A stretch of DNA of 64,000 nt. Origin: an uncultured Nitrospiraceae bacterium. GTDB taxonomy: Bacteria > Nitrospirota > Thermodesulfovibrionia > Thermodesulfovibrionales > Dissulfurispiraceae. The position numbers and the translations under genes were made by a program. The notes under the pieces were generated by a model that was not told the origin of the DNA, made no database searches, and saw only the letters and a program-made list of their open reading frames with translations. Position 1 is the first letter of the stretch, and every line of letters begins with the position of its first letter. Below, in pieces: positions 1 through 13,849 of this stretch. The stretch is taken from assembly GCA_963705105.1 (NCBI GenBank), contig CAVPIW010000017.1, positions 53,821 through 117,820 of the forward strand, read 5' to 3'.

Positions 1-76
1 AGTGCGTCCCAGCCTTCTCACACAAGGAGAGCGCCTGCGCACAGAAGTAACAGTCCGGCATCAGGCCGCACAGATC

Positions 77-114
77 AAAAGAGGAGGGGCCGCGTGAGCG
101 GCCCCTCCTCTTTT
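77..114. terminator. Rho-independent terminator, bidirectional-looking
   Basis: AAAAGAGGAGGGGCCGC-GTGA-GCGGCCCCTCCTCTTTT: a perfect stem with A and T tails. Confidence 0.85.
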
Positions 115-156
115 CGTTTTCTCGTTTCTTTGCGCGCGTTGCGACTTTGATAGTAT

Positions 157-362
157 ACTTGTTCGTTGCATGGAAAGGAAGGGCGAAGCATTCCGAAAAC
201 AGTGTCAGTGTCAGTGTGAGTGTCAGTGTCGGAAAAGATGTCCAATTCTCCTGACATCCGCGTATGCCTCGTCTTTCGTTTTGATACAGGTGTCGCCGCA
301 GCAAGGTTTTCGGCGCATACACCCTTCCTTTCCAAAAAACGTATGCACCGATCGATAAGGTC
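157..362. repeat. Modular intergenic inverted-repeat element (GTGTCA-array left arm, GGTGTCGCCGCAGCAAGG right arm)
   Basis: Shares its end motifs with more than 15 other intergenic loci in the window. Confidence 0.8.
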
Positions 363-379
363 AACAAAGGAGGAACGGC

Positions 380-778
380 ATGAAGACACATCCCGTTGTC
401 TGGAGCATCGTTTTGAGCATTTTCATCCTGTTATTGCATCAGCCCGCCTTTGCCGAGGACCCGGCAAAGGATGCCAAGGCGGTTTTTGTGAAGCTCGTCA
501 ATGCGGCAAAGGCGAAAAACACGGCGGAGTTCAAGTCATACATCGCCAGAGAGGACCTCAAGGAGATGGAGAAGGAGGGCTTCGTCGACATGATGATGGA
601 CGTGATGGCCGAGGAAAACCCGGACCTTTTCAAGGCCGGCGTGAAAGAAAACCAGGTCATTTTTACGAAAGAAATCCAGAGGACGTCTCCGGAAGGGACC
701 TCGTCGGAAAAAACGACAGTCCGCATGCTCAAGGAAAACGGGCAGTGGAAGTTCGGAAAACCACGGGCCTCCGAATAG
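380..778 (+). CDS. Exported hypothetical protein, possibly NTF2-like/DUF4878-like
   Basis: AGGAGG RBS, signal peptide ending AFA, C-terminal MLKENGQWKF motif. Confidence 0.75.
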   Translation: MKTHPVVWSIVLSIFILLLHQPAFAEDPAKDAKAVFVKLVNAAKAKNTAEFKSYIAREDLKEMEKEGFVDMMMDVMAEENPDLFKAGVKENQVIFTKEIQRTSPEGTSSEKTTVRMLKENGQWKFGKPRASE

Positions 779-798
779 GGTCCCATCCCCGCGGAGGT

Positions 799-1163
799 TA
801 CTTTGTCGTTGCATAGAAGGGCGGGGAGAAGCTCTCTGAAAGACAGTGTCAGTGTGAGTGACAGTGTCGGTGTCACTACTGCTTCCTCCGGGAAGGCAGA
901 TATGGGTCAAAGCCTTTCCAATGCGATGATGAGACATCTCAAGGCGTTCAATGCCCGTTGCCTCACGGGCATTTGGTATCGACAGACACGGCAAAGGGTG
1001 GTCTGGGGACAGATAAGGTATCTTAGCGGAATGGCTTTTCACCACATCAGCCTCCCCGTCAGTTGGTCGTGGCCTTTTTCCGACTACTGATTACTGCCTA
1101 TGGTCTACTGTTCAGTGGCGCATACGCCCCGCCCTTCCCGGAAGTGTATTGCAGCGATAAGGG
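799..1163. repeat. Composite intergenic repeat: GTGTCA arm, about 170-bp module B, partial right arm
   Basis: Module B (CCGGGAAGGCAGATATGGGTCAAAGCC...GGCTTTTCACCACATCAGCC) recurs at 33184-33358 (-) and 49378-49552 (+). Confidence 0.8.
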
Positions 1164-1202
1164 TTACATGGCGGCCAAGACAACATTCCATCCGGAGGGT
1201 TT

Positions 1203-2009
1203 ATGAAAACACGTTTGGCAGTGATGGTGATTTGCGCGATGGTCTGGGCCGTGTCCGCCGGTGCGGCGACGGGGGCCGGTCATGACGCCGGCTCTTCCTG
1301 CGCAGGATCGACGATCCCTGATCAGCCCGGATCGATCCTGCTCGCGCAGGGAAAACCCCTGAGCGGGAGTGTTCTCGAACAGGCCTGCAGGGCCTATGCG
1401 GACCAGGGAATGAAGGACTCGCAGCAATGGGAACAGCGCAGGTGTCGCGAAAAGCTCAATATCGCGCCCCAGCTCTTCACGACGGAATACAAATCCCACT
1501 ACACGCGGTGCATGTCATCGGTTGGCACATCGATCGAGAGCGACAACGCCACGCGGCAGGACTATCTCAGGCGGTGCGGTGCGGGCTCGACGTCCGACCG
1601 TCCCACAGCCGTTCCCCCGCCGTCCACGTCCACTCCAACCGCAAAGCCCCCGACCCCTCCCCCTGCGACGGGGACCACGCCGGGAACGAGAACGCCCGGC
1701 GCCGACATCGGAAAGCCCGGCGCATGGGAGATAACGCTTCTCGACCTGAAGACCCTCAAGACCTACCGCTACGCATACTCGTTGACCTTCCGCGGGAACA
1801 ATTTCGAGGGGGTCTATCTCGATCCGGGAAACAACAAAAGCTCCTTCAGCGGCTTCATATCCCCGGACGGGTCCCGGATCGAGTACAGGCAGCAGGACAA
1901 CGACTACCAGGCGAACTTTGCCGGCAGAAAAACGGGGACGGGCAGGTTTGAAGGGGCGGTCTGCGATTCCAGGGGTAACCTCTTCACCTTTACGCTCAGG
2001 AAGAAATAG
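1203..2009 (+). CDS. Secreted hypothetical protein (Cys-containing helical domain, Pro/Thr linker, beta-rich C-terminal domain)
   Basis: GGAGG RBS, signal peptide, PPPSTSTPTAKPPTPPP linker. Confidence 0.75.
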   Translation: MKTRLAVMVICAMVWAVSAGAATGAGHDAGSSCAGSTIPDQPGSILLAQGKPLSGSVLEQACRAYADQGMKDSQQWEQRRCREKLNIAPQLFTTEYKSHYTRCMSSVGTSIESDNATRQDYLRRCGAGSTSDRPTAVPPPSTSTPTAKPPTPPPATGTTPGTRTPGADIGKPGAWEITLLDLKTLKTYRYAYSLTFRGNNFEGVYLDPGNNKSSFSGFISPDGSRIEYRQQDNDYQANFAGRKTGTGRFEGAVCDSRGNLFTFTLRKK

Positions 2010-3615
2010 GGGATTTCAGGAAACAGAAGGGATCGCGGTCGCTGAAGGCGTCGAGGCCGCAGCTTGACGTGACGGCAATGCAGCCGCCGCAGACGGGGCG
2101 GATCGCGCAGGAGCGGCATGCCGACGAACCGGAGCGGTAGCGCCGGGCGATCTCAGAATCGTAGATCTCGGTGAGACTCTGCTGAAAGGCGTTGCCGATC
2201 AGGGAAGGGAATTTCCTGCAGGCATGGACTTCGCCGTCCGGCAGGAGGGCGAAGAAGTTGAAGGCGGCGCCGCAGCCGTATCCCGTGCACCCCCCAAAAG
2301 GTTCCATGCCCCTTTCATGATACTTGATCCCGATGAGGTTGTCCTTGATCCCGAGAACGGGCAAGCGCCGGCGAGCCTCGAGATACTCGTCAAGAAAAGC
2401 GGAAAAACGCTCCTGTGACGGCAGGCTGAGCCGTGCGCCTTCTCCGACGAGGGCAAGGCGGTTGAAGGTGAAGAGGTCCGTCAGTCCCTGGAGCCGCTCA
2501 GCGAGCGAAATGACCTGGTCGATGTTATCCCTCGTCAGGGTCAGCATCACCATGGAGTATATGCCGAGCTCACGCAGGACCGGGAGAAACTCCATGACGC
2601 GGCGGTAGTGTCCCCGGCCCCTGATGAGGTCGTTCTGTTCCTCAAGTCCCTCGAGGCTCACCTGATAGTAGACGGGCCGGCGTATCGCGATGAGCGGCTC
2701 AATCTTCTCGCGGGGAGCGGGATTGCCGAGGATGGCGATCTCGAAGCCGAAGTCGGAGGCGGCCCTGTACACGTCGGTGAAATGGGGATACAGAAGGGGA
2801 TTGCCGCCTGTAAAGGAAACCTGCGCCCAGACATGCTTGCTCTCGCAGAAAGAGCGGAGGTCGCCGAGGATGCGCAGCGCCGCATCCCTGCTGAGGGGAG
2901 AGCGGTTGCTCCTGTCATAACAATGCCTGCAATGGAGATCGCAAGCCTGGGTGATGTGCCACTGCAGCGTGAAGGAGGGGGATGTCATAAATTCATCGTA
3001 TTGAGGCCCGAATCCGGAAAAGACGGCAGGGTCCCTCTGAATGAGGGACGGTGACGAGATGAGAATGGCCCTGCCTGCCGCCCGCTGAATGACAGCATCT
3101 ATATGACCGACGGGAATGCCAGCTTCCCGCGCAACATCCCCGGCATCGATGCCCTCGACAACCATTTTAACCGCCAGGAGATCCTCTTCAGTGGCGGCGC
3201 GGACAACGACGTCCCCTCCCGGGGTTTTCCAGACCATGACAAATTCTTCGCCGGCTTCAGGAACCCTGTCAATCCCCGTTGGAGCGACCAGCTCTGCCAG
3301 ATGTTTCCAGGGCAATGTAAGGAGCCTGAGCGTCGGGTTCACATCGGTCTGACTGAGCCGGTCCGGAGGCGGAGATGCCTGCCTCACCGACGCAACGGTC
3401 CATTCCAGGCGGGCGAGACCGGCGAGATAGGCCGGAATTTTCCGGTCGTCCGGAAATTTCGCGAGAAAAGCGATCAGTTCTTCAGCATCCGCTCCGGCAG
3501 GACAGGTCAGAATTGTGTCTGACCGTATCGCAGCGGGTAGGAGGGAGAGAAGAACGGGGTAGACGGACTCGAGTGGCACGTCTGTGTTCGATGCCTGAGC
3601 GCATTGCCCTGTCAT
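1996..3615 (-). CDS. sbtM: Radical SAM/SPASM peptide maturase, selenobiotic / thio(seleno)oxazole SbtM type
   Basis: CDLHCRHC radical SAM motif, SPASM cysteines (GGCTGYGCGAA...CRSCAIRPVCGGC), long N-terminal extension, adjacent Sec-containing precursor. Confidence 0.85.
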   Translation of the reverse strand: MTGQCAQASNTDVPLESVYPVLLSLLPAAIRSDTILTCPAGADAEELIAFLAKFPDDRKIPAYLAGLARLEWTVASVRQASPPPDRLSQTDVNPTLRLLTLPWKHLAELVAPTGIDRVPEAGEEFVMVWKTPGGDVVVRAATEEDLLAVKMVVEGIDAGDVAREAGIPVGHIDAVIQRAAGRAILISSPSLIQRDPAVFSGFGPQYDEFMTSPSFTLQWHITQACDLHCRHCYDRSNRSPLSRDAALRILGDLRSFCESKHVWAQVSFTGGNPLLYPHFTDVYRAASDFGFEIAILGNPAPREKIEPLIAIRRPVYYQVSLEGLEEQNDLIRGRGHYRRVMEFLPVLRELGIYSMVMLTLTRDNIDQVISLAERLQGLTDLFTFNRLALVGEGARLSLPSQERFSAFLDEYLEARRRLPVLGIKDNLIGIKYHERGMEPFGGCTGYGCGAAFNFFALLPDGEVHACRKFPSLIGNAFQQSLTEIYDSEIARRYRSGSSACRSCAIRPVCGGCIAVTSSCGLDAFSDRDPFCFLKSPISS

Positions 3616-3626
3616 TGTTATGAATA

Positions 3627-3843
3627 TACCCTGTAGTTGTATAAAAAGGCGGGGCGAAACGCCTCAAAGCCTTGCTGAAGGCGACGATACGCCTCGTCAG
3701 CTTCGTGTTTCAGGATTCCACTCTTTGTGTCATCGACCATTGGCGTATAGTTCATCTCTCGTTTTGATATAGGTGTCGCCGCATCAAGGTTTTCGGCGCA
3801 TACACCCCGCCTTTCCTGGGAGTGTGTTGCAACGATAAGGTAT
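3627..3843. repeat. MITE-like intergenic element, module A
   Basis: Imperfect terminal inverted repeats AAAGGCGGGG...CCTTGCTG and CAAGG...CCCCGCCTTTCC. Close copies at 6111, 31127 and 49575. Confidence 0.85.
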
Positions 3844-3956
3844 ACCTATGCCCGGACGATTTGTTTCGGGCGATGCCGCGGGCGGAATTCACCGGCGGCA
3901 TCGCCCTCTTTTCCGTCTAAGACCCCCGTCTTTATCGATTGCAGAACGAAACGAAT

Positions 3957-3973
3957 CCGTGCTTCCAGCACGG
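3957..3973 (-). promoter_or_regulatory. SECIS-like hairpin 3, lying just 3' of the precursor's TAA
   Basis: CCGTGCT-GGA-AGCACGG starts 15 nt after the UGA at 3991-3989. Confidence 0.75.
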
Positions 3974-4213
3974 TTACTTGGCGCCGCCTCAACCACTCTT
4001 GGCAGGCGGTTTCTCTTCGGTGGTGCCTCCAGCACCTTCCTTTTTCGCGCCTCAACCACTCTGGGCCGGTTTCTTCTCTTCAGTGGCGCTTCCAGCGCCG
4101 TCTTTCTTGCCCGCTCAGGCCGACGAGCAGCCGTAGAGCCCGAGGGTCGTGCCGGCCAGAAGACTGGCAATGCCGATTCCGGCGAGGACCTTCTTGAGAT
4201 GCTCCTTGTCCAT
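3974..4213 (-). CDS. sbtA: SbtA-family RiPP precursor with three selenocysteines (79 aa)
   Basis: AGGAAGGAGG RBS, then MDKEHLKKVLAGIGIASLLAGTTLGLYGCSSAUAGKKDGAGSATEEKKPAQSGUGAKKEGAGGTTEEKPPAKSGUGGAK-TAA. In-frame TGA at 4117-4115, 4054-4052 and 3991-3989. Directly upstream of the radical SAM gene. Confidence 0.85.
4022..4036 (-). promoter_or_regulatory. SECIS-like hairpin 2
   Basis: GGTGCT-GGA-GGCACC starts 15 nt after the UGA at 4054-4052. Confidence 0.75.
4085..4099 (-). promoter_or_regulatory. SECIS-like hairpin 1
   Basis: GGCGCT-GGA-AGCGCC starts 15 nt after the UGA at 4117-4115. Confidence 0.75.
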
Positions 4214-4356
4214 GTTGTCACCTCCTTCCTGTGGAGCGACGTGACTGCGATTTCGTTGAGAAGCGCAGGGCCTGTCCCTGCAATTTGTACTATAGATATT
4301 AACTATAAGATATTCATTATCTATAGCTCATTCTATCAACCATGGGGGAGATTGTC

Positions 4357-4627
4357 AACCTTATCGCTGCAATAGGACATCCGGAAAGGCGGGGCGAAGA
4401 TGCCGAAAAGCCCTGGTGCTGAGAAACCACGAAAAGGCCTATCCTCGCGCCAAGACGCCAAGGTCGCCAAGAACGGCAAATGCACAAGTGCATAAAATCT
4501 TTTTTTAGGATGAAGGTCTTTATCTTTCTTTGCGCTCTTTGCGGTTTTGCGTGAGAATAAACAATCATGCTCCCTATCAGCAAGGCTTTGAGGCACTTTG
4601 TTCCGCCTTTGCATGCACCGGAAGGTC
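4357..4627. repeat. Intergenic inverted-repeat element with a nested CGCCAAG / CTTTGCG short-unit repeat
   Basis: Left arm CCTTATCGCTGCA...GGAAAGGCGGGGCGAAGATGCCG; right arm CAGCAAGGCTTTGAGGCAC...CCGCCTTT. Confidence 0.75.
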
Positions 4628-4735
4628 AGCCTTGGGCGGGGAAGCGCGCGTGACGGGATATCGGAGGTTTAGAATGGCGGTGCGATCTCATCGGGGGGCA
4701 GGGGCGCGGCATGCCGCACCCCTGCCTGCATAAGC

Positions 4736-6028
4736 CTAATGCTTGAAGGCCCTCTGGCCGGTGAAGACCATGGTCACTTTCGGGTCCGCCTCGTTGCAGG
4801 CCTCGATGCACTCGAAATCCCTGTCCGACCCGCCGGGCTGGACGATCGCCGTAATGCCCTCCTTGATGCCCACGTCGACACCGTCCCTGAAGGGGAAGAA
4901 GGCATCCGAAACCATGGAGGAGCCGATCAGTCCGCCTCTCTGGTCCCGCGTTTCGTCATCGATCTCGGAAAGCGCCTCCTGGTCCCTCTTGCCGAGGATG
5001 ACCTCCAGTTCATAGGTCTTGTAGGGGATACCGTATTTCTTAAAGCAAAGGGCGTCGGCGTATTTTGTGTAGGCCTTGAACACTGCGATCTCCGCAACGC
5101 CGACACGGTCCTGCTCTCCTGTGCCGATGCCGGCGGTGACACCGTCTTTCACAAAAATGACCGAATTCGACGTGACTCCCTGTTCAACGCTCCAGCCGAA
5201 GATCATGTCATCGTATTCCCTTTCCGTCGGGGTCCTTTCGATGACATAGTCCTTGCCCTTGAAGGTCGCCTTTGCGGGCAGGAAATCCTCTTTGGACCGG
5301 ATCCTGTTCAGCGGAGACTGCTGGACGACGAAGCCGCCGTCGATGAGGGATTTGAAGTCGACGAACCTGAGTGTGCGGTACTTTTCGAGATCATATATCT
5401 TCTTCAGACGTATGATCCTGAGGTTCTTGCGCTGGGCCAGGATATTGACCGTCCCCTCCTCGTACTCCGGTGCCGCGACGACCTCGAGGTAGTTGGCGCT
5501 CACCATTTCGGCCGTTTCCTTGTCCATCGCCCGGTTGACGACGAGACAGCCTCCGAAGGCGGCGATCCGGTCGGCGTAATTGGCCTTGTAGTATGCGTCG
5601 GAGACCGATGTTCCGCAAGCGACGCCGCAGGGGTTGGTGTGTTTCATAATCGCGGCGGCAGGCCGGTCTGTCAGAAACTTCAGGATGTTCAGCGCGTTGT
5701 CCAGGTCGGTGAAGTTTATCTTGCCGGGGTGTTTACCGGCCTGGAGCATGTCGTCTTCGGTAATGCCGCTGACGAGGCCGTTGCCGGGGCTGATATACTC
5801 GCACTGTTTCAGAACGAGGCCGCCCTTGACGAGCTCGTAGATGGCGGCCTGCTGGTCGGGATTCTCACCGTAGCGGAGCCCTTTTTCGATGAGATCACCT
5901 GTCTTGTCATCCGGGATTTTCCAGGTCCTCTTCTTGTAGACAAGGGTCTGCTCTCCAAATGTCACGGTGATCTCGTCAGGGAAATCATCATCCATGATCG
6001 TCTTGTACATCTTCTTCAGTTCAGCCAT
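4736..6028 (-). CDS. purH: PurH-family AICAR transformylase / IMP cyclohydrolase-like protein lacking the classical N-terminal MGS-like domain
   Basis: LRYGENPDQ, KHTNPCG, SDAFFPFRDG, QPGGS and FTGQRAFKH motifs; AGGAGG RBS. Confidence 0.85.
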   Translation of the reverse strand: MAELKKMYKTIMDDDFPDEITVTFGEQTLVYKKRTWKIPDDKTGDLIEKGLRYGENPDQQAAIYELVKGGLVLKQCEYISPGNGLVSGITEDDMLQAGKHPGKINFTDLDNALNILKFLTDRPAAAIMKHTNPCGVACGTSVSDAYYKANYADRIAAFGGCLVVNRAMDKETAEMVSANYLEVVAAPEYEEGTVNILAQRKNLRIIRLKKIYDLEKYRTLRFVDFKSLIDGGFVVQQSPLNRIRSKEDFLPAKATFKGKDYVIERTPTEREYDDMIFGWSVEQGVTSNSVIFVKDGVTAGIGTGEQDRVGVAEIAVFKAYTKYADALCFKKYGIPYKTYELEVILGKRDQEALSEIDDETRDQRGGLIGSSMVSDAFFPFRDGVDVGIKEGITAIVQPGGSDRDFECIEACNEADPKVTMVFTGQRAFKH

Positions 6029-6110
6029 GGCTCCTCCTTGCACATGAATTAGCTGCGGTGAATAGCGTCCCTAATCATACCAGAGGGGAAAGAGGCGATG
6101 GAAGAGAATA

Positions 6111-6326
6111 TACCTTGTGTTGCACAGAAAGGCGGGGCGAAGCGCCTCAAAGCCTTGCTGAAGGCGACGATAAGCCTCGTCAGGTTTGTTTTTCAGGATT
6201 CCACTCTTTATGTGATCAACCATTAGCTTGAAAGGTTGTCTTTAGTGAAGGTTAAGGTGTCGCCGCATCAAGGTTTTCGGCGCATACACCCCGCCTTTCC
6301 GGAGACCCTATTGCAACGATAAGATA
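6111..6326. repeat. MITE-like intergenic element, module A
   Basis: Close copy of 3627-3843 and 31127-31342. Confidence 0.85.
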
Positions 6327-6358
6327 TAGTATCAGTGTGAGTGTCGGTGAAAGGAGGA

Positions 6359-6493
6359 TTATTTGTACAGCAGGGGATGGACGAGCCTCTCGTAGACCCT
6401 TGCGAGCCTGAAGGCCATGGTCTTCGGCATGAAGTTGCACATGCGGCAGTAGACATGCACGGAGTTCAGGCGGTGCTGCAGTCGATGCCTCAT
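6359..6493 (-). CDS. Small basic hypothetical protein (44 aa; 49 aa if it starts at TTG 6508)
   Basis: MRHRLQHRLNSVHVYCRMCNFMPKTMAFRLARVYERLVHPLLYK; high GC3 codon usage; below the ORF-track cutoff. Confidence 0.55.
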   Translation of the reverse strand: MRHRLQHRLNSVHVYCRMCNFMPKTMAFRLARVYERLVHPLLYK

Positions 6494-6644
6494 TTTTTGT
6501 CTCGTCAAGGCACATGCCCCCTTCTGCGGGCGATTAGCGGGCTCGGAAGTCCGGCTGATCGTGACCGCTATGTTATGCGGAGGGGGAGAGAAAAGGCAAT
6601 TTTAAAAATCTGATGAAAATATAAGATTTATTTATCATCACCGG

Positions 6645-7105
6645 CATCCAAAATAACCTGACACGAGCATAGGGCGCATGCAACGGTGGCTTTTCACCAC
6701 ATCAGCCTTCCCGTCAGGGTATTTGTCGTCTGGTTTCTATCATTGCCTACTGTCTATTGCCCACTCACCCCTGTCCAAAATATTGTGCAGCCGGACTTTG
6801 AAAACGAGGATGGGGTGTGGTTTCTGAAGCATAATTCACGGGTACCGTGAACGGCGGCGGGAGACGAAGGCGCAAGCCGCAGCGGGAGCCGCACAGTGTA
6901 CCTGTGAAGACATATGTTTTCATAACAAAGACATGTCCTTGAGGGAGGTAGTTTATTTTGCGAAGAAATCATGCCCTATCCTCGAGTCACATTATTTTGG
7001 ACACCAATGCTGGCTTCTGATTCGTCTTTCCTTTTGATACAGGTGTCGCCGCACCAAGGCTTTTCGGCATCTTCGCCCCGCCTTTCGGTCGGGCGTATGC
7101 AATGT
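6645..7105. repeat. Cluster of repeat modules (D fragment, B end, module C, module D, right arm)
   Basis: 6770-6923 closely matches the reverse complement of 31345-31501; 6941-7005 closely matches the reverse complement of 31048-31112. Confidence 0.8.
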
Positions 7106-7132
7106 TACGATAATTGTGGCATTATGTATAAC

Positions 7133-7300
7133 AGTTGACGGATTCGTAAAAAGTCGTCATACCCGCGAAGCTTGTCCTCGCGGATAGTAAGCGGGGAGCG
7201 GGTATCCAGATTACAAATAACTGCATGAAAGGACTGGATTCCCGTCTGCACGGGAATGACGGATAAGCCCCGCACAGGACTTTTTTCGAGGCCGACACAG
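7133..7300. repeat. REP-like palindromic element (CGTAAAAAGTC...GACTTTTT ends, inner GTCATACCCGCG / CGGGAATGAC palindromes)
   Basis: Visible inverted ends and a GGATTCCCG...CGGGAATGAC hairpin. Confidence 0.65.
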
Positions 7301-7334
7301 TTGTCTGCGATAGAGGGACTGGTTTCCGGAAGAC

Positions 7335-7904
7335 ATGGCGCGATCAAAGGACAGACAGGGTAAGAAGGGGAAAGGGACGGCGCCTGCCGGCGCTGCGAGG
7401 AGGTCCGGCGTTGCCCGGTTTGCCATTACCTACGTCATCCTTATGGGCATCTTCTTCCTGCTCATCGGTCTGAAACCGGTCCAGGATATTGTTGATCTGA
7501 ACGGTCTTTACACACAGGCCGTCGTTGCGGTCACATCGAAGGTGCTCGGCGTCCTTTCCGTCCCATGCGAGACCCTCGGGTCGGTGATCCGGCTTGAGTC
7601 GATCTCTCTCGACGTGCGTTTCGGCTGCAACGGGCTCGAGGCCGTTATGATCTATTCCGTGGCCGTGCTGGCCTATCCGGCGTCATGGCGGAAAAAACTG
7701 GCGGGCATCGCGGCCGGCTTTCTCGTGATCCAGATCATCAACATCCTTCGAATCGCTTCACTCGTCTATGCGGGAATTCACTTCAAGAGGTTCTTTGAAA
7801 TTATTCATCTCTATGTGGCCCAGGGCATCATGATCGCCGTGGCCCTCGCCGTTTTCTTCCTCTATCTTCATTATTTGCGGGAAAAAGGGACAGTCGATGC
7901 TTAG
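7335..7904 (+). CDS. xrtH: Exosortase H (IPTL-CTERM-specific)
   Basis: Short multi-TM protein with catalytic Cys (GCNG), Arg (NILRI) and His (IHLY), next to an IPTL-CTERM protein. Confidence 0.85.
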   Translation: MARSKDRQGKKGKGTAPAGAARRSGVARFAITYVILMGIFFLLIGLKPVQDIVDLNGLYTQAVVAVTSKVLGVLSVPCETLGSVIRLESISLDVRFGCNGLEAVMIYSVAVLAYPASWRKKLAGIAAGFLVIQIINILRIASLVYAGIHFKRFFEIIHLYVAQGIMIAVALAVFFLYLHYLREKGTVDA

Positions 7905-8448
7905 ATCGCCGGTCATCAGGACGGCCCTCGTGTTTGTCCTCGCCTATATACTGTCTCTCCTATGCTGGATACAGGTGAAGGACCATTACGGATATGCCGT
8001 CACCTTTGTCTCGTCCAAGTTCGTCGCGGGCCTCAAGAATGCGCGGATGACGGAGATAACCGGAAAGGGGGACACGATCGAGGCAACCTTTGCGCCGTCC
8101 GGAAAAACGGGAGGTATGCTCGTCGATATCCCCTTCAAGACCTCCAATTACACATTCAATGTCCCCCTGACCATTGCGATCATGGCCGCCTTCTGGCCGC
8201 ACCTTGCCAGGAGAGGCAGGGCGTATACAGAGGCGTGCCTTCTTCTGATGACGGTGCATCTGCTCTACGTGTTTTCCTACGGCGCCCAGCAGATGACTGC
8301 CGTTCTCATCGACCGCGGCATGGAGCAGGCCAATGTCCCGAAAGAGTTCTTCTATGAGTTTCTCTGGACCTTCACCGACAACATGATCATCCGGTTCGAG
8401 CCCTTCCTTATCGGCAGCTACCTGTTTTTCCGGTTCAGGCGCCGCTAA
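7897..8448 (+). CDS. Exosortase H-associated membrane protein
   Basis: Overlaps the xrtH stop; multi-TM; NYTFNVPL motif. Confidence 0.7.
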   Translation: MLRSPVIRTALVFVLAYILSLLCWIQVKDHYGYAVTFVSSKFVAGLKNARMTEITGKGDTIEATFAPSGKTGGMLVDIPFKTSNYTFNVPLTIAIMAAFWPHLARRGRAYTEACLLLMTVHLLYVFSYGAQQMTAVLIDRGMEQANVPKEFFYEFLWTFTDNMIIRFEPFLIGSYLFFRFRRR

Positions 8449-11400
8449 GGAACTGCGCACTCTGCCTTCTCAGCCTGTACGCGCTGATCCCTCCGGCGAT
8501 CAGGAAAAACAGCATCATCCCCCACTCCGTCATGGTGGGTACCGGCACGGCCCCTCCCTGCACATCTCCGAAGACTGCCGTCGCGGCGCCCTGAGGCGTC
8601 ACGGTTACAGATACAACCGTGTTTGTCGTACCCACGAAGCCCGGCGGCACGGTTTGAGAAACCGTATACTGCCCCGGCAGCAGGTTCACGAACACGTAGT
8701 TGCCGTTGCCGTCCGTCGTTGTCGTCGCAATGACGGCATTGGCGTTGTCCAGGAGGTTGATCGTCACGCCGGGCAGTGCCGGCTCCCCCTCATCCTGAAC
8801 GCCGTTGCCGTTGATGTCATTGAAAACCCTTCCCGTTACGGACCCTGTTGCCGGCGCGGTCTGTGCATCTCCGAAATCGGCTGGCGCCGTTCCACCTGCC
8901 GTCACATTCACCGCAACCGTATTAGGGGTCGTGCTGACAAACCCGGCGGGGTCCGTCTCGACGACGGTATAGTTTCCTGTGACGATGCCGGCAAACACGT
9001 AGGTGCCGTCCGCCGCGGAAGCCGTCGTCGCGATGACGGCATTGGTGTTATCCAGAAGGTTGATCGTCACGCCGGGCAGTCCCGGCTCACCGGCATCCTG
9101 GACTCCGTTCCCGTTGATGTCGCTGAAAACGACTCCTGATATGCCGCCGGTCGGCAAGGCTGTGATGGTTGTGCTCCCTGCGGCGCTGTTGTTCGTGAGG
9201 TTAGGGTCCGTGGTTGTTGTCGAGATGACCGCCTGCACCGTCACAGATCCCGAAGCCGGGGCCGTGTAGCTCAGCGTGAAGAGAACGCTCTGTCCGCTGG
9301 TGAGCGTGGGAGGGAGTCCTGACAACGTCGCGATGCCGGTCACCGGGTCATAGACGCATGAGACCCCGCTGCCGACGCATGAAACACCGCCGAGACCAGG
9401 GTTGAGAGTCAAAGTGTAACTCATCCCCGCGGCCGCAGACGGCCCAAGGTTGCTGCATGTAATTTGGACGTTTACCGTACTGCCTGCGGCGGCGTTAACA
9501 GGACCCACCATGGCGGTTGCAGCGTCAGCCAGCGCCGTCACGGTCGTCGGATCGCTCGCCGTATTGTTGCCGGCATTCAGCTCGCCTCCCCCGGACACAG
9601 AGGCAGAGTTCGTCACGATCGGCGCAGCGTTGCCGGCCACATCCACGGTCACGGTGATGGCTGGGTAGCTCAGTCCCGACGCAATCACATCGCTCCGTGT
9701 GCAGGTGAGCGTCGCAAGGACGCACGACCAGCCCGTGCCGCTCAAGCCGGTCACCGTCAGTCCTGCCGGCGGCGTCTCGGTCACCGTTACGAGCCCGGTT
9801 GTCGACCCCGCTCCGCTGTTCGTCACCGTGATGCTGTATGTCGCCCCCGTCTGTCCCTGCGTGAAGTTCCCCGTATGGGTTTTTGCGATCGTCAGGTCAG
9901 CCAGGGCGGTAATCGTCGTGGTGCTGCTCGCCGTATTGTTGCCGGGGTTGGAGTCGGTCGTAGCGGTGCTGATCGCGCTGCCGATCGTCACCGCACCATT
10001 GGCAGGTGCCGTATAGCTCAGGGTGATGGATATCGTCTGACCGCTCGTAAGTGTCACCGGCAACCCACTGATCGTCACCGCTCCCGTGATATTGTCGTAA
10101 GCGCAGGTCAGTCCGGCCGGCCCGCTGCAACTGACCGCTCCCACACCCAGACCGGCAGGCATCGTCACTCCGTACGTCACACCCGATGCCGTCGCGGGAC
10201 CGTTGTTGGTGAAGGTGATGGGAACATTCACAGTGCTCCCTCCGATGGCGCTGGCCGGTGGCGCGACGGTGGTCGATACGTCCGCCGTCGCCGCCGCCGC
10301 AGTGATGCCCGTCGTTCCCGTTGCGGAGTCAGGACCGATGTTCGATCCCTGACCGGTACTCGTGCCTATCGTCGATGTAATTGATACGGTGCCGGGAACT
10401 CCCGGCGCCGTATAGCTCAGCGTAATGGTTTCCGCCTGTCCGCTGATGAGTGTCGCTGGCAGCCCCGAAATGGCGACCGCACCCGTGACGTTGTCATAGG
10501 CGCAGGATAGTCCGACGGGCCCGCTGCAGCTCACCGCTCCCACACCCAGACCCGCAGGCAGCGTTGCTCCATAGGTAACCCCCGCCGCTGTTGCGGGACC
10601 AAGGTTCGTAAAGCTCACCGGCACATTGACGGTACTCCCGACGACGGCCGTGGCAGGAGGGGTTAACGACGTCGTCACATCGGCCGATGTTGCCCCTGCA
10701 TTGACGGTGGTAGTACCGCTCGCACTGTCAGGCGCCGCGTTCACTCCCTGGTTCGTCGTCGTCGTGATGGCGCTCCCGACAACGACCGATCCTGACGCGG
10801 GCGCAGTGTACGAGAGGGTGACGATCACCGTCTGCCCGCTGCTGAGACTTCCCGGAAGTCCGCTGATGTCCACCGCTCCGGTGAGGCCGTTGTAACTGCA
10901 CGTCGCTCCGGCGCAACTCACGCCGCTCAACCCCGGCGGCAATGAAGCGCCGTACGTCACCCCCGCCGCCGGCAACTGTCCTACATTGCCGAAACTGACA
11001 GGCACGTTCACCGTGCCTCCGGGCAGCGCTTCAGCCGGCGCCGTGACGGTGGTGGTAACGTCTGCGACCAAAACCACCGTCGTACCCGTCGACGTGTTGT
11101 TCGCACCGTTGGCGTCCGAGGATGTCGTCGTAATCAAAGCGTTCACCGGCACCGATCCCGCTATTGGAGCGGTATAGGTGAATCCGAAGAAGTAACTCTG
11201 ACCGCTTGCGAGTGTGGCAGGAAGCCCAGGCGATCCGCCGAAAGTTACAGCACCGGTCGTGTTGTCGTAGCTTGCGGTTACGCTGAAGGGCAGCGTCGTG
11301 AAGCTCACCGCCGAGGGGAAATTGCCCGGACTTCCTATTGTCACGGCGTATGTCACGCCCGCTGCCAGCCCTGCCCCATTGTTAGCAAAGGTGAAAGTCC

Positions 11401-13576
11401 CGGCCACCGTATCTCCGGCGGCGGCGCCTGCGGGTACGCTCACAGCCGCGATGACATCAACCTCGCCGATACCCGTGCTGATAAAGGCTGTATTGTTACC
11501 CGGATAATCGTCGACGGATGCCGTGCTGATACCTGTCGTTACGGTAATCGTTCCCGAGGCCGGCGCTGTGTAGCTGTATGTCATCGGCGCCGCCGGATTC
11601 GCTCCAAGCACAGTCTGTCCCGGCGTGAGCGTGGTCGTCAGAGGGGTTCCGCCGAAGGTCACGACACCGGTAATGTTGTCGTATGAGGCGGTGGTTCCCG
11701 TCGGCAAATTGCCGAAAGTTACCGTGCCCAACCCGGGAGACAGTGACATGCTGTACGTCACGTTGAGGGCCGATCCCGTCCCGTTGTTCTCAAATCTGAA
11801 GGCGCCCTGCACGGTGCTGCCCGGCGCCGCAGTGCCGGGTCCGCCGACTGATGTCGCCGCATCGATGACCACGGGGATGATCGTTAACGTTTCGACCGGG
11901 GGAGTCACGGAGTAGAACGTCCAGAGGTCGACACCCTTGGCGTCTCCCCAATCGTTCTTCGTTGACGTGGCGGTGCAGTCGTTGTTCTGCGTCGCGCCGC
12001 CGGTGCCGCTCTGGACTCCCCATGTACGGTAGGCCGTTGAAGAATCTACGCCATTCAGGCTGAGGTCAAGAACAGGAGGCGCCGGAACGGCGATCGGACA
12101 GAGGAGTCCGTTGAGAGTACCGACGAGAATGCCGCTCCTCGTCAGGTAGCCGCGGTCGTCATAGTAGACCGTTGTGTCTGGCGCCCCGACGCCGTTCAGG
12201 CGAGTGACTTCGGGGCCGCCGAAGAAGTTGTTCTCCGAATCGATGATGGGGAAGTGCGTCTCTCCGTTTCTCCCGGAAACGCTGAACGGGTAGGGGCCGC
12301 CGGCCGGGAAGTTGACGGCGTTGTTGTTCTTGCCGTCCCACGTAACGGTGTGGCTGCCGGTCCGCGCAACACCCGTGAGGGTGCGGTTGTTGATATTTTC
12401 CGGGTTGAAGTCGATTCCGTCGACGCTGATGACGATCTGGTAGGTAATGGTGTCCGTCGTATCGAACCTGAAGACCCCACCCGCGCCCACGGTGGACCGG
12501 GAGCCCGTGATATTACCGACGAAGGACATGTTTGACACCACCGGCGACGGCGGCACGAGAGGAATGCCGAGTGCTGTGAGCACCCGGGTTATCTCCGCCG
12601 CGTTCGCTCCGCCTGCGCTGGCGTCGCTGAAGAAGATCGGGTACTGGGCGATCTGGGAGGTGACTCCGACCGGAAGCGTGGTCACGGCCTGCTGGTTGCC
12701 TCGCAGGTCCTTGTAGAGAGGGTTGCCGTTGTCGAGGAACCCCAGTGAGTTGGCATACAGAGCATATTGATTAGGGTCCAGGCCGGTGAGCCGCTGTTTG
12801 TACCGGTAGCCGTCCTGGGTTATGTAATAGAGGGTCGAGTAGAGCGAGCAGCTGTTGCAGCCGGTGTATCCGGCAAAAGCGTATGTGAACAACCGTCCGT
12901 TCAGGTCGACGACGGACGTTGCATCAGCCCGTACGGTTACATCCCATGCAGAAACGGTGCTGGTGGACGTTGCGGGAGGGTCTACTGATCCGTTGGGACC
13001 ACCGCCGGCGCCCGCAACCGTGAAAACCACGCCGTAGACGCCCGTCTGGGGCGCCTGGTAGGCGCAGGGCCTGAAGCCGCCCGAAACGAGAACCGAATTG
13101 TCGGCGCTGTTCGGTCCCGCCAGTTCCTGGGCTCGATCGGCGATCAAGCCGGTCGTTGTCGCGCCGGTGCCGCCGGAGAAATGGACACCCGATTGCGTAC
13201 TTCCGCCCGAGCAGCTGAAATCTGCGGCCCCGGGAATGGTTTCATCACCGGGAATGCCGAAGCTCTGGGGATTGTAGACACTGATATCGCCCGTCGTCGT
13301 TCCGGTGGTGGATCGGTTTCGGGAACCGAGGACGATGTATTCCCCCGCCTGCGCATAGACGTAGAGGAAGGTACTTCGTCTGACCACATTGGCGTACTTG
13401 GCGCCGGCAGAGAGGTCGAGATTCGCCCGGGCGTTGTTCGTGCCGGCATACGTCGCCGGATACAGCGATCGGCTGCCCTCTCCATGGGCATTGACGGCTA
13501 TTCCGAATAATATAGTTATCGTGCATAATAAAAGGACTGCAGGGACCATGGAACGGCAACCCCGGCGAAGTTGCAT
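8435..13576 (-). CDS. Large surface protein with DUF11-like Ig repeats, two SdrD-B-like domains and an IPTL-CTERM sorting signal
   Basis: GAGGAGG RBS, signal peptide, repeated ADV...F.N.G...A.GV.Y...YTAP units, two F.DINGNGVQD.GEP units, C-terminus VPTMTEWGMMLFFLIAGGISAYRLRR. Confidence 0.9.
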   Translation of the reverse strand: MQLRRGCRSMVPAVLLLCTITILFGIAVNAHGEGSRSLYPATYAGTNNARANLDLSAGAKYANVVRRSTFLYVYAQAGEYIVLGSRNRSTTGTTTGDISVYNPQSFGIPGDETIPGAADFSCSGGSTQSGVHFSGGTGATTTGLIADRAQELAGPNSADNSVLVSGGFRPCAYQAPQTGVYGVVFTVAGAGGGPNGSVDPPATSTSTVSAWDVTVRADATSVVDLNGRLFTYAFAGYTGCNSCSLYSTLYYITQDGYRYKQRLTGLDPNQYALYANSLGFLDNGNPLYKDLRGNQQAVTTLPVGVTSQIAQYPIFFSDASAGGANAAEITRVLTALGIPLVPPSPVVSNMSFVGNITGSRSTVGAGGVFRFDTTDTITYQIVISVDGIDFNPENINNRTLTGVARTGSHTVTWDGKNNNAVNFPAGGPYPFSVSGRNGETHFPIIDSENNFFGGPEVTRLNGVGAPDTTVYYDDRGYLTRSGILVGTLNGLLCPIAVPAPPVLDLSLNGVDSSTAYRTWGVQSGTGGATQNNDCTATSTKNDWGDAKGVDLWTFYSVTPPVETLTIIPVVIDAATSVGGPGTAAPGSTVQGAFRFENNGTGSALNVTYSMSLSPGLGTVTFGNLPTGTTASYDNITGVVTFGGTPLTTTLTPGQTVLGANPAAPMTYSYTAPASGTITVTTGISTASVDDYPGNNTAFISTGIGEVDVIAAVSVPAGAAAGDTVAGTFTFANNGAGLAAGVTYAVTIGSPGNFPSAVSFTTLPFSVTASYDNTTGAVTFGGSPGLPATLASGQSYFFGFTYTAPIAGSVPVNALITTTSSDANGANNTSTGTTVVLVADVTTTVTAPAEALPGGTVNVPVSFGNVGQLPAAGVTYGASLPPGLSGVSCAGATCSYNGLTGAVDISGLPGSLSSGQTVIVTLSYTAPASGSVVVGSAITTTTNQGVNAAPDSASGTTTVNAGATSADVTTSLTPPATAVVGSTVNVPVSFTNLGPATAAGVTYGATLPAGLGVGAVSCSGPVGLSCAYDNVTGAVAISGLPATLISGQAETITLSYTAPGVPGTVSITSTIGTSTGQGSNIGPDSATGTTGITAAAATADVSTTVAPPASAIGGSTVNVPITFTNNGPATASGVTYGVTMPAGLGVGAVSCSGPAGLTCAYDNITGAVTISGLPVTLTSGQTISITLSYTAPANGAVTIGSAISTATTDSNPGNNTASSTTTITALADLTIAKTHTGNFTQGQTGATYSITVTNSGAGSTTGLVTVTETPPAGLTVTGLSGTGWSCVLATLTCTRSDVIASGLSYPAITVTVDVAGNAAPIVTNSASVSGGGELNAGNNTASDPTTVTALADAATAMVGPVNAAAGSTVNVQITCSNLGPSAAAGMSYTLTLNPGLGGVSCVGSGVSCVYDPVTGIATLSGLPPTLTSGQSVLFTLSYTAPASGSVTVQAVISTTTTDPNLTNNSAAGSTTITALPTGGISGVVFSDINGNGVQDAGEPGLPGVTINLLDNTNAVIATTASAADGTYVFAGIVTGNYTVVETDPAGFVSTTPNTVAVNVTAGGTAPADFGDAQTAPATGSVTGRVFNDINGNGVQDEGEPALPGVTINLLDNANAVIATTTTDGNGNYVFVNLLPGQYTVSQTVPPGFVGTTNTVVSVTVTPQGAATAVFGDVQGGAVPVPTMTEWGMMLFFLIAGGISAYRLRRQSAQFLSGA

Positions 13577-13849
13577 GTGCCTCCTCCTCAAATGTAATGG
13601 ATTCGTTATAAACAAGTGTCCAACCACAGATTTAATGGACGTTAATGGTACATGAAACAGTAAGAGAAAAAGCTATAATTCTCTGTGTTTTTCGAGAACT
13701 GCCGATGACACTGTTACCTGCGAAAACGTACCTATAAATAAGGGTCTCTTTGAAGGGTCGCTAAGCAGGGCGCTGCCATCATAGGATAGTATCGGGAATT
13801 AAGAAATAAAGTTTACAGTATTAAGTATGGTGGTGCATACAAAGGGAGG

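Follow-up and report, generated by a model that had tools for sequence, protein, structure and literature searches.

A three-selenocysteine SbtA precursor with a predicted lipoprotein-type export signal, and its radical SAM maturase, in an uncultured Nitrospiraceae bacterium

SbtA and SbtM form a known thio(seleno)oxazole system among the ribosomally synthesised peptides that undergo modification after translation (RiPPs) (NCBIfam TIGR04081/TIGR04082; PMC9204691, PMC11002830). Its natural product and function were given as unknown in a 2022 perspective (PMC9204691), and a 2026 review lists the TIGR04081 family with a RefSeq protein containing two selenocysteines (Sec) (PMC13188914). Related chemistry is found in bufferins and oxazolins, metallophores whose 5-thiooxazoles are made by oxidative enzymes that depend on multinuclear non-heme iron (MNIOs). 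Bufferin MNIOs need DUF2063 partner proteins to install the rings, and bufferins are exported by a signal peptide and act as copper binders in the periplasm (PMC11626156); some 16% of the Buf2 precursors are predicted to be lipoproteins, and fusions to cytochrome c occur rarely (PMC12452194). Lipidated MNIO products, the RiPP-lipoprotein hybrids DybA and NedA, have been shown experimentally and named DAG-RiPPs in a study that mined MNIO clusters and AIP-like precursors (PMC13056109). Here we describe an sbtA/sbtM cassette on the reverse strand of a 64,000-nucleotide stretch of DNA (the window; contig CAVPIW010000017.1 of assembly GCA_963705105.1, positions 53,821 to 117,820) from an uncultured Nitrospiraceae bacterium. 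Our reading, to which we assign a probability of roughly 0.6, is that SbtM makes selenooxazoles in a three-Sec precursor which is exported and anchored to lipid at Cys29. The three-Sec sbtA is a well-supported member of the known family; its predicted lipoprotein subtype is the candidate for a new aspect.

Membership of the family had been proposed from the DNA letters alone (the sequence-only reading) and is borne out by both profile hidden Markov models (HMMs), with 43.1 bits for the precursor against a TIGR04081 cut-off of 30.5 and 694.4 bits for the maturase against a TIGR04082 cut-off of 350, the next family reaching 140 bits. As that reading had described, a frame opens at the ATG at 4213, 7 nt behind a perfect ribosome-binding site (AGGAAGGAGG, 4221..4230, reverse strand as for all cassette features below), and with TGA read as Sec it runs for 79 codons to a TAA stop at 3976-3974 (sbtA, 3974..4213) with the motifs SSAU, QSGU and KSGU. 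The three UGA codons lie at 4115..4117 (Sec33, in the context S-A-U-A, which is not the characterised Gly-Sec motif), 4052..4054 (Sec54, S-G-U-G) and 3989..3991 (Sec75, S-G-U-G). This frame indeed has no entry in the plain list of open reading frames (ORFs) of at least 60 aa, and the significance of the three-Sec feature lies mainly in annotation. The peptide is rich in Gly, Ala, Lys, Ser and Glu and is built of 21-codon tandem units, with a 63-nt direct repeat at 3985-4110. Pfam holds no family for the read-through peptide, Rfam gave no meaningful match over window positions 1-8000, and a protein-database search with the peptide returned no match among 9 candidates, an uninformative outcome because such a search does not reach low-complexity or truncated forms. 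The maturase gene sbtM (1996..3615, 539 aa) matches PF04055 and PF13186 and keeps its motifs intact, with CxxxCxxC at residues 225-232 and nine Cys at 443-531. It had been placed next to the precursor; a radical S-adenosylmethionine (SAM)/SPASM gene does follow downstream in the same orientation, but the two genes are separated by 358 nt and so are not tightly adjacent.

Upstream of sbtA stands a sigma-70-type promoter-like site (TTGACA-17-TAGAAT with an extended -10 TG; 4330..4358) that may serve the gene. It matches 11 of 12 consensus positions, three such sites were found against 0.7 expected in shuffles, and an RNA contig starts downstream of it at 4291. The sbtA gene is covered by RNA contigs of three metatranscriptome studies, and one from an independent study is identical to 3981-4291 and spans all three TGA codons with zero differences, indicating that the TGAs are not assembly errors. 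RNA-contig cover of sbtM is patchy and was not used for ranking expression.

For comparison, 142 distinct family precursors were collected, the remainder of 161 leader matches after removal of DNA duplicates. They come from 28 maturase loci, 61 relatives, the host's class (301 genomes, of which 46 had a match) and three sets of 151 genomes centred on a Geobacter, a Desulfobulbaceae and an Oceanidesulfovibrio genome (23, 87 and 7 with a match, respectively), with the best 30 of 95 matches used for the Desulfobulbaceae-centred class. Sec was counted by a motif rule, with last-codon UGAs excluded. In sbtA, a hairpin with a GGA loop that resembles a Sec insertion sequence (SECIS) follows each Sec codon at a spacing of exactly 15 nt: hairpin 1 (4085..4099, 6 bp), which encodes G-A-G-S-A, hairpin 2 (4022..4036, 6 bp) and hairpin 3 (3957..3973, 7 bp), which lies in the 3′ untranslated region directly behind the TAA and also has a terminator-like score. 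In 500 shuffling trials a hairpin arose in 1.6%, 1.8% and 5% of cases for sites 1, 2 and 3. Across the family, such a hairpin lies behind 250 of the 309 ordinary Sec codons, 14 of the 15 Sec codons that have a second Sec no more than four codons away, and all 10 last-codon UGAs. By comparison, it lies behind 5 of 46 Cys codons in the core, 1 of 40 in the lipobox and 373 of the 7447 codons used as controls. What appears as a conserved GAGST/GAVST peptide shortly after each Sec is the translation of this hairpin. The Sec machinery on which the sequence-only reading depended is present, as the genome (99% complete) carries selA, selB and selD above cut-offs together with one tRNA-Sec, and its SelD gene itself contains an in-frame TGA. 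Judged from these sequence signals, Sec is almost certainly inserted at the sbtA UGAs.

A single bacterial mRNA with several UGAs is usually recoded inefficiently, and this, like the terminator-like character of hairpin 3, would favour partial read-through, with mainly a truncated product of 32 or 53 aa and the gene acting as a selenium sink or sensor. We regard this as highly improbable: spacing and loop are the same in all three hairpins, including the one outside the coding frame, and homologs keep the peptide through to a TAA or TAG end, some with Cys at the same sites. Conservation beyond the first UGA and interchange of Cys and Sec had both been named as checks in the sequence-only reading. 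A TGA that is a sequencing error or a true stop was rejected on the grounds of homolog conservation, the hairpins and the RNA contigs. Elsewhere in the genome, a 96-nt tRNA called as Cys (GCA) on contig C10 (176596-176691) is as long as tRNA-Sec, and we take it to be possibly a selC*-type tRNA.

The sequence-only reading had presented three Sec as a special multivalent variant, and this did not hold. The 142 precursors contain none (8), one (19), two (60), three (38), four (12) or five Sec (5, the maximum), and with at least three in 55 of them a triple-Sec precursor is ordinary in the family; its standing as a new variant was rejected on that count. Around their Sec motifs the cores consist of low-complexity spacers that vary in length. 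The residue before Sec is Gly in 251 of 326 cases, Ser in 57 and Ala in 18. Sec54 and Sec75 (SGUG) carry the Gly-Cys/Sec substrate motif. In the mechanism that we propose, SelB would insert Sec at codons 33, 54 and 75, guided by the hairpin 15 nt past each UGA, and cytoplasmic SbtM, probably holding the conserved N-terminus of the precursor via an HvfC/BufC-like domain, would form selenooxazoles by oxidation of Gly-Sec54, of Gly-Sec75 and perhaps of Ala-Sec33, each with a change of -4 Da. This mass change and an absorbance near 304-313 nm are the hallmarks of thio(seleno)oxazoles. Of the three modifiable sites put forward in the sequence-only reading, selenooxazole formation is, by analogy within the family, very likely at Sec54 and Sec75 and uncertain at Sec33.

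Two further arrangements were seen among the precursors. Ten of them (L014, L032, L047, L074-L076 and others) have a UGA right before TAA or TAG, all 10 with a hairpin, which suggests a C-terminal Sec. At L123, L124, L127, L128 and L040, all-Cys and Sec precursors stand in tandem with one sbtM between them, the all-Cys partner possibly being a fallback under selenium scarcity.

The sequence-only reading spoke of a leader similar to that of the family and overlooked both its export-signal build and its predicted lipobox Cys. Residues 1-28 (4130..4213) are the family leader, which is built like an export signal, with a charged n-region and an uncharged hydrophobic h-region at residues 9-28, and the predicted lipobox L26-Y27-G28-C29 (4127..4138) ends in Cys29, the predicted diacylglyceryl acceptor. 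In all 142 precursors a Lys/Arg-rich start is followed by an uncharged stretch 19 or more residues long (median 29). Lipoboxes were called by our own pattern rules, and the L-Y-G-C box matches a PROSITE-style lipoprotein pattern. The lipobox type comprises 39 of the 142, with Cys at 26-29 straight after the hydrophobic run and Gly at -1 in 35 of 39; L055 was taken out of the set by hand (40 to 39) for its all-Cys core site. The other 103 have, in 98 cases, a small-x-Ala/Gly site shortly ahead of the first Cys/Sec. Pro precedes the Cys in 5 of 39 lipobox types versus 90 of 103 others with Pro at residues 22-33, the windows differing in length, and the Pro-containing non-lipobox type looks from its sequence like signal-peptidase-I substrates. 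In the 134 precursors that use Sec, all 42 Cys/Sec residues at positions 23-29 are Cys, whereas positions 32-40 have 4 Cys against 122 Sec, as expected of a lipid-acceptor Cys and not of a core site. By group, the lipobox type makes up 29 of 60 precursors from the host's class and all 3 of those titled Nitrospirota, none of the 30 from the Geobacter-centred class, and 4 of 37, 2 of 8 and 1 of 4 in the remaining groups. The genome has lgt and lspA. In our proposal, the N-terminus of sbtA would direct the product into the general secretory pathway; lipidation of Cys29 and removal of the signal by Lgt and LspA would then yield a flexible envelope lipopeptide of 51 residues. As predictions, export of the sbtA product is very probable and lipidation at Cys29 rather probable. 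No description of a lipidated SbtA was found in the literature searched, whose reach did not extend to the original SbtM and early family papers. At L045, L066 and L073, a lipobox-type and a secreted-type precursor lie in tandem with one common sbtM.

SbtA might instead be an ordinary soluble product, exported and cleaved by signal peptidase I or processed in another way, with Cys29 as a fourth core site (a thiooxazole or a disulfide/selenylsulfide partner). Gly28-Cys29 also matches the Gly-Cys motif that is the characterised substrate of SbtM (PMC9204691), Tyr at -2 is atypical of a lipobox, and 103 of 142 precursors have no lipobox, including 30 of 30 in the Geobacter-centred class. Yet most core sites are Sec, with free exchange between Cys and Sec, while positions 23-29 are never Sec (0 of 42); moreover, the lipobox Cys comes right where the h-region ends, and the Pro-containing c-region is mostly missing. 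We consider the soluble product unlikely and prefer the lipid-anchored one, against which several other points also weigh. The lipobox call comes from pattern rules, not from a trained signal-peptide predictor. Tyr at -2 occurs in 0 of 63 heuristic lipoprotein starts of the genome and in 2 of 39 family lipobox types (close strains in two RNA runs have Gly at residue 27 through 4134 T>C and 4135 A>C), and 4 of the 42 early Cys, at position 23, are probably inside the h-region. Relatives are not independent, a quick maturase tree having 11 lipobox-type switches of which 3-4 are forced by strong branches. On the side of the core and its expression, Sec33 is preceded by Ala, not Gly, and the RNA evidence consists of contigs that carry neither strand nor expression level and could reflect DNA carry-over.

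The same leader occurs outside the cassette. In six genomes from one family of the host's order (L079, L082, L083, L084, L085 and L090; e.g. L082:2971-3369, forward strand), the SbtA leader and one Sec with its hairpin are fused to a monohaem CxxCH cytochrome c domain in a protein of 133 aa, a candidate for a new seleno-cytochrome c. Attachment of c-type haem requires export, so these fusion proteins must be exported. Five fusion loci with about 3 kb of downstream DNA have no sbtM after the fusion, and most fusion-bearing genomes hold a lipobox-type sbtA/sbtM elsewhere.

The N-terminal domain of SbtM (2980..3576) is predicted to adopt the NGO1945/HvfC/BufC/TglI partner fold, which contains a RiPP recognition element (RRE). 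Its model, made from a 75-sequence alignment with a predicted local distance difference test score (pLDDT) of 94, has NGO1945 (3DEE) as best structural match (E 4e-5, TM 0.60; Z 12.7, root-mean-square deviation 3.5 over 160 residues), followed by TglHI entries (8HCI, Z 10.8) and then RRE domains. In sequence, NF050145 matches 4 of the 75 members (best E 8e-4, below cut-off) and PF09836 and PF22106 one each, no HMM passing its cut-off; Pfam has no family for the window's own domain, and its profile found only 2 matches among PDB sequences, with E near 0.9. Given these weak sequence matches, the link to MNIO partners is at fold level only. An Atlas look-up gave 0.75-0.77 with HvfC-like names, which is a lead and not evidence. 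When a relative's leader was modelled in complex with its own N-terminal domain, the score was 0.57, against 0.00 for the best control; at least 85% of contacts agreed between runs, and the partner pLDDT was 61. The mark that this complex reached was also reached by 116 solved pairs out of 157 and by 2 mismatched ones out of 215, and with a score of at most 0.60 by only 18 solved pairs and both mismatches. This modelling lends weak support to leader binding by the domain. A structural link from SbtM to the bufferin partner was likewise not described in the same searched literature, with the same reach.

Compared with the described systems, the cassette agrees with SbtA/SbtM in passing the HMM cut-offs, in Sec codons with downstream hairpins, in its S-G-U-G motifs and in the two-gene layout. 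It differs in that the host is likely a member of Nitrospirota, whereas Geobacter and 'Desulfbacteria' are the hosts named in review; in having a predicted lipobox Cys29, found in 0 of 30 SbtA sampled from the Geobacter class; and in a first Sec that follows Ala and in a second paralogous pair elsewhere in the genome. With bufferins and oxazolins it would share the ring class, precursors with signal peptides of predicted secreted and lipoprotein subtypes, and a partner domain predicted to fold alike (DUF2063/HvfC); both families have rare fusions to cytochrome c. However, an oxygen-independent radical SAM/SPASM enzyme with a fused partner domain takes the place of the MNIO, SbtA uses selenium, and the precursors have no sequence homology. 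No MNIO (DUF692) gene was found among the neighbours scanned; the adjoining enzyme is SbtM. The cassette is bufferin-like in its working at most and is not a member of the bufferins or oxazolins. DAG-RiPPs resemble sbtA in a lipobox Cys past a hydrophobic stretch (a predicted lipobox in sbtA), in several repeats of the modified motif and in cytoplasmic modification followed by Lgt/LspA processing, although for the sbtA product such processing, and with it lipidation, is only predicted. The main text of the DAG-RiPP paper contains no mention of 'radical', 'selen' or 'SbtA' (PMC13056109).

A bufferin-like product located in the envelope is what the export signal, lipobox subtype, shared partner fold and cytochrome fusion jointly indicate. 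We tentatively suggest, at somewhat less than even odds, that the SbtA lipoprotein branch, with 39 members among the 142 precursors and roughly half of the precursors in the host's class, makes membrane-anchored selenooxazole peptides and represents radical-SAM-built selenium DAG-RiPPs, and that SbtA/SbtM is the oxygen-independent counterpart, in anaerobes, of bufferins and oxazolins, with an HvfC-type partner fold fused to a different catalyst and a seleno-cytochrome c offshoot. If true, DAG-RiPPs would extend beyond MNIO enzymes, and selenium use in anaerobes would be tied to metal handling. Reasoning from bufferins and oxazolins, the likeliest job of the peptide would be binding of soft metals such as copper, or redox/sulfur buffering in the envelope. 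No other step of the proposal is as weak, and it is a possibility that we hold with some doubt, all the more as no metal-resistance genes recur near the cassette at 144 loci (flanks 1.5-5 kb). A lipid-anchored or secreted product could alternatively be an antimicrobial or signalling peptide (a 'selenobiotic/selenobacteriocin'), in line with a table in the 2026 review that names TIGR04081 'Selenobacteriocin' (PMC13188914), and SbtA would be a small exported RiPP. That role appears improbable to us. Among 688 neighbouring ORFs of the 144 loci there is no conserved third gene, transporter or exporter, or protease, and no immunity gene recurs at these loci; low-complexity cores of variable length, the existence of the cytochrome c fusion and a lipid anchor, which would suit display more than release, likewise speak against it.

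The host genome holds a second sbtA/sbtM pair, which the sequence-only reading overlooked, on contig C12 (184426-186380; L014 and L107). Its precursor has 100 codons, no lipobox, two internal UGAs and a last-codon UGA-UAG with its own hairpin, making a C-terminal Sec probable. A rubrerythrin/ferritin-like gene lies upstream of this pair.

In the gap between sbtA and sbtM, a strong GC-rich hairpin (3868..3906) is a possible attenuator or mRNA stabiliser. The gap also contains two copies of high-copy interspersed repeats (3636..3845, no strand assigned), which are not part of the cassette and have 303 and 439 BLAST pieces of at least 40 nt in the genome. A DNA run shows forms without them, with joints at 3624/3841 and 3627/3844, and since these copies are absent from some contigs they appear to be mobile or polymorphic. 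High-copy interspersed repeats also occur at window positions 255-333, 1117-1167, 4353-4626, 6119-6329 and 7008-7090; the families run to hundreds of pieces per genome, are very deep in a sediment DNA run and have no Rfam match. A second, 31-nt intergenic repeat at 1032-1062 and 6687-6717 is 97% identical between its copies and has 11 genome pieces of at least 40 nt.

Upstream of sbtA, a PurH-like protein (window 4736-6043, reverse strand) has partial AICARFT/IMPCHase matches below cut-offs. Farther along the window, exosortase H and an associated membrane protein are encoded at 7335-8448 (forward strand), beside a 1730-aa repeat-rich surface protein (8435-13627, reverse strand) with a sorting-like C-terminal tail, VPVPTMTEWG. 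Elsewhere in the assembly, contig C4 carries an array of 23 tRNAs (10181-12340), and contig C3, 9 kb long with 67% GC and five tRNAs, is possibly foreign or misbinned DNA.

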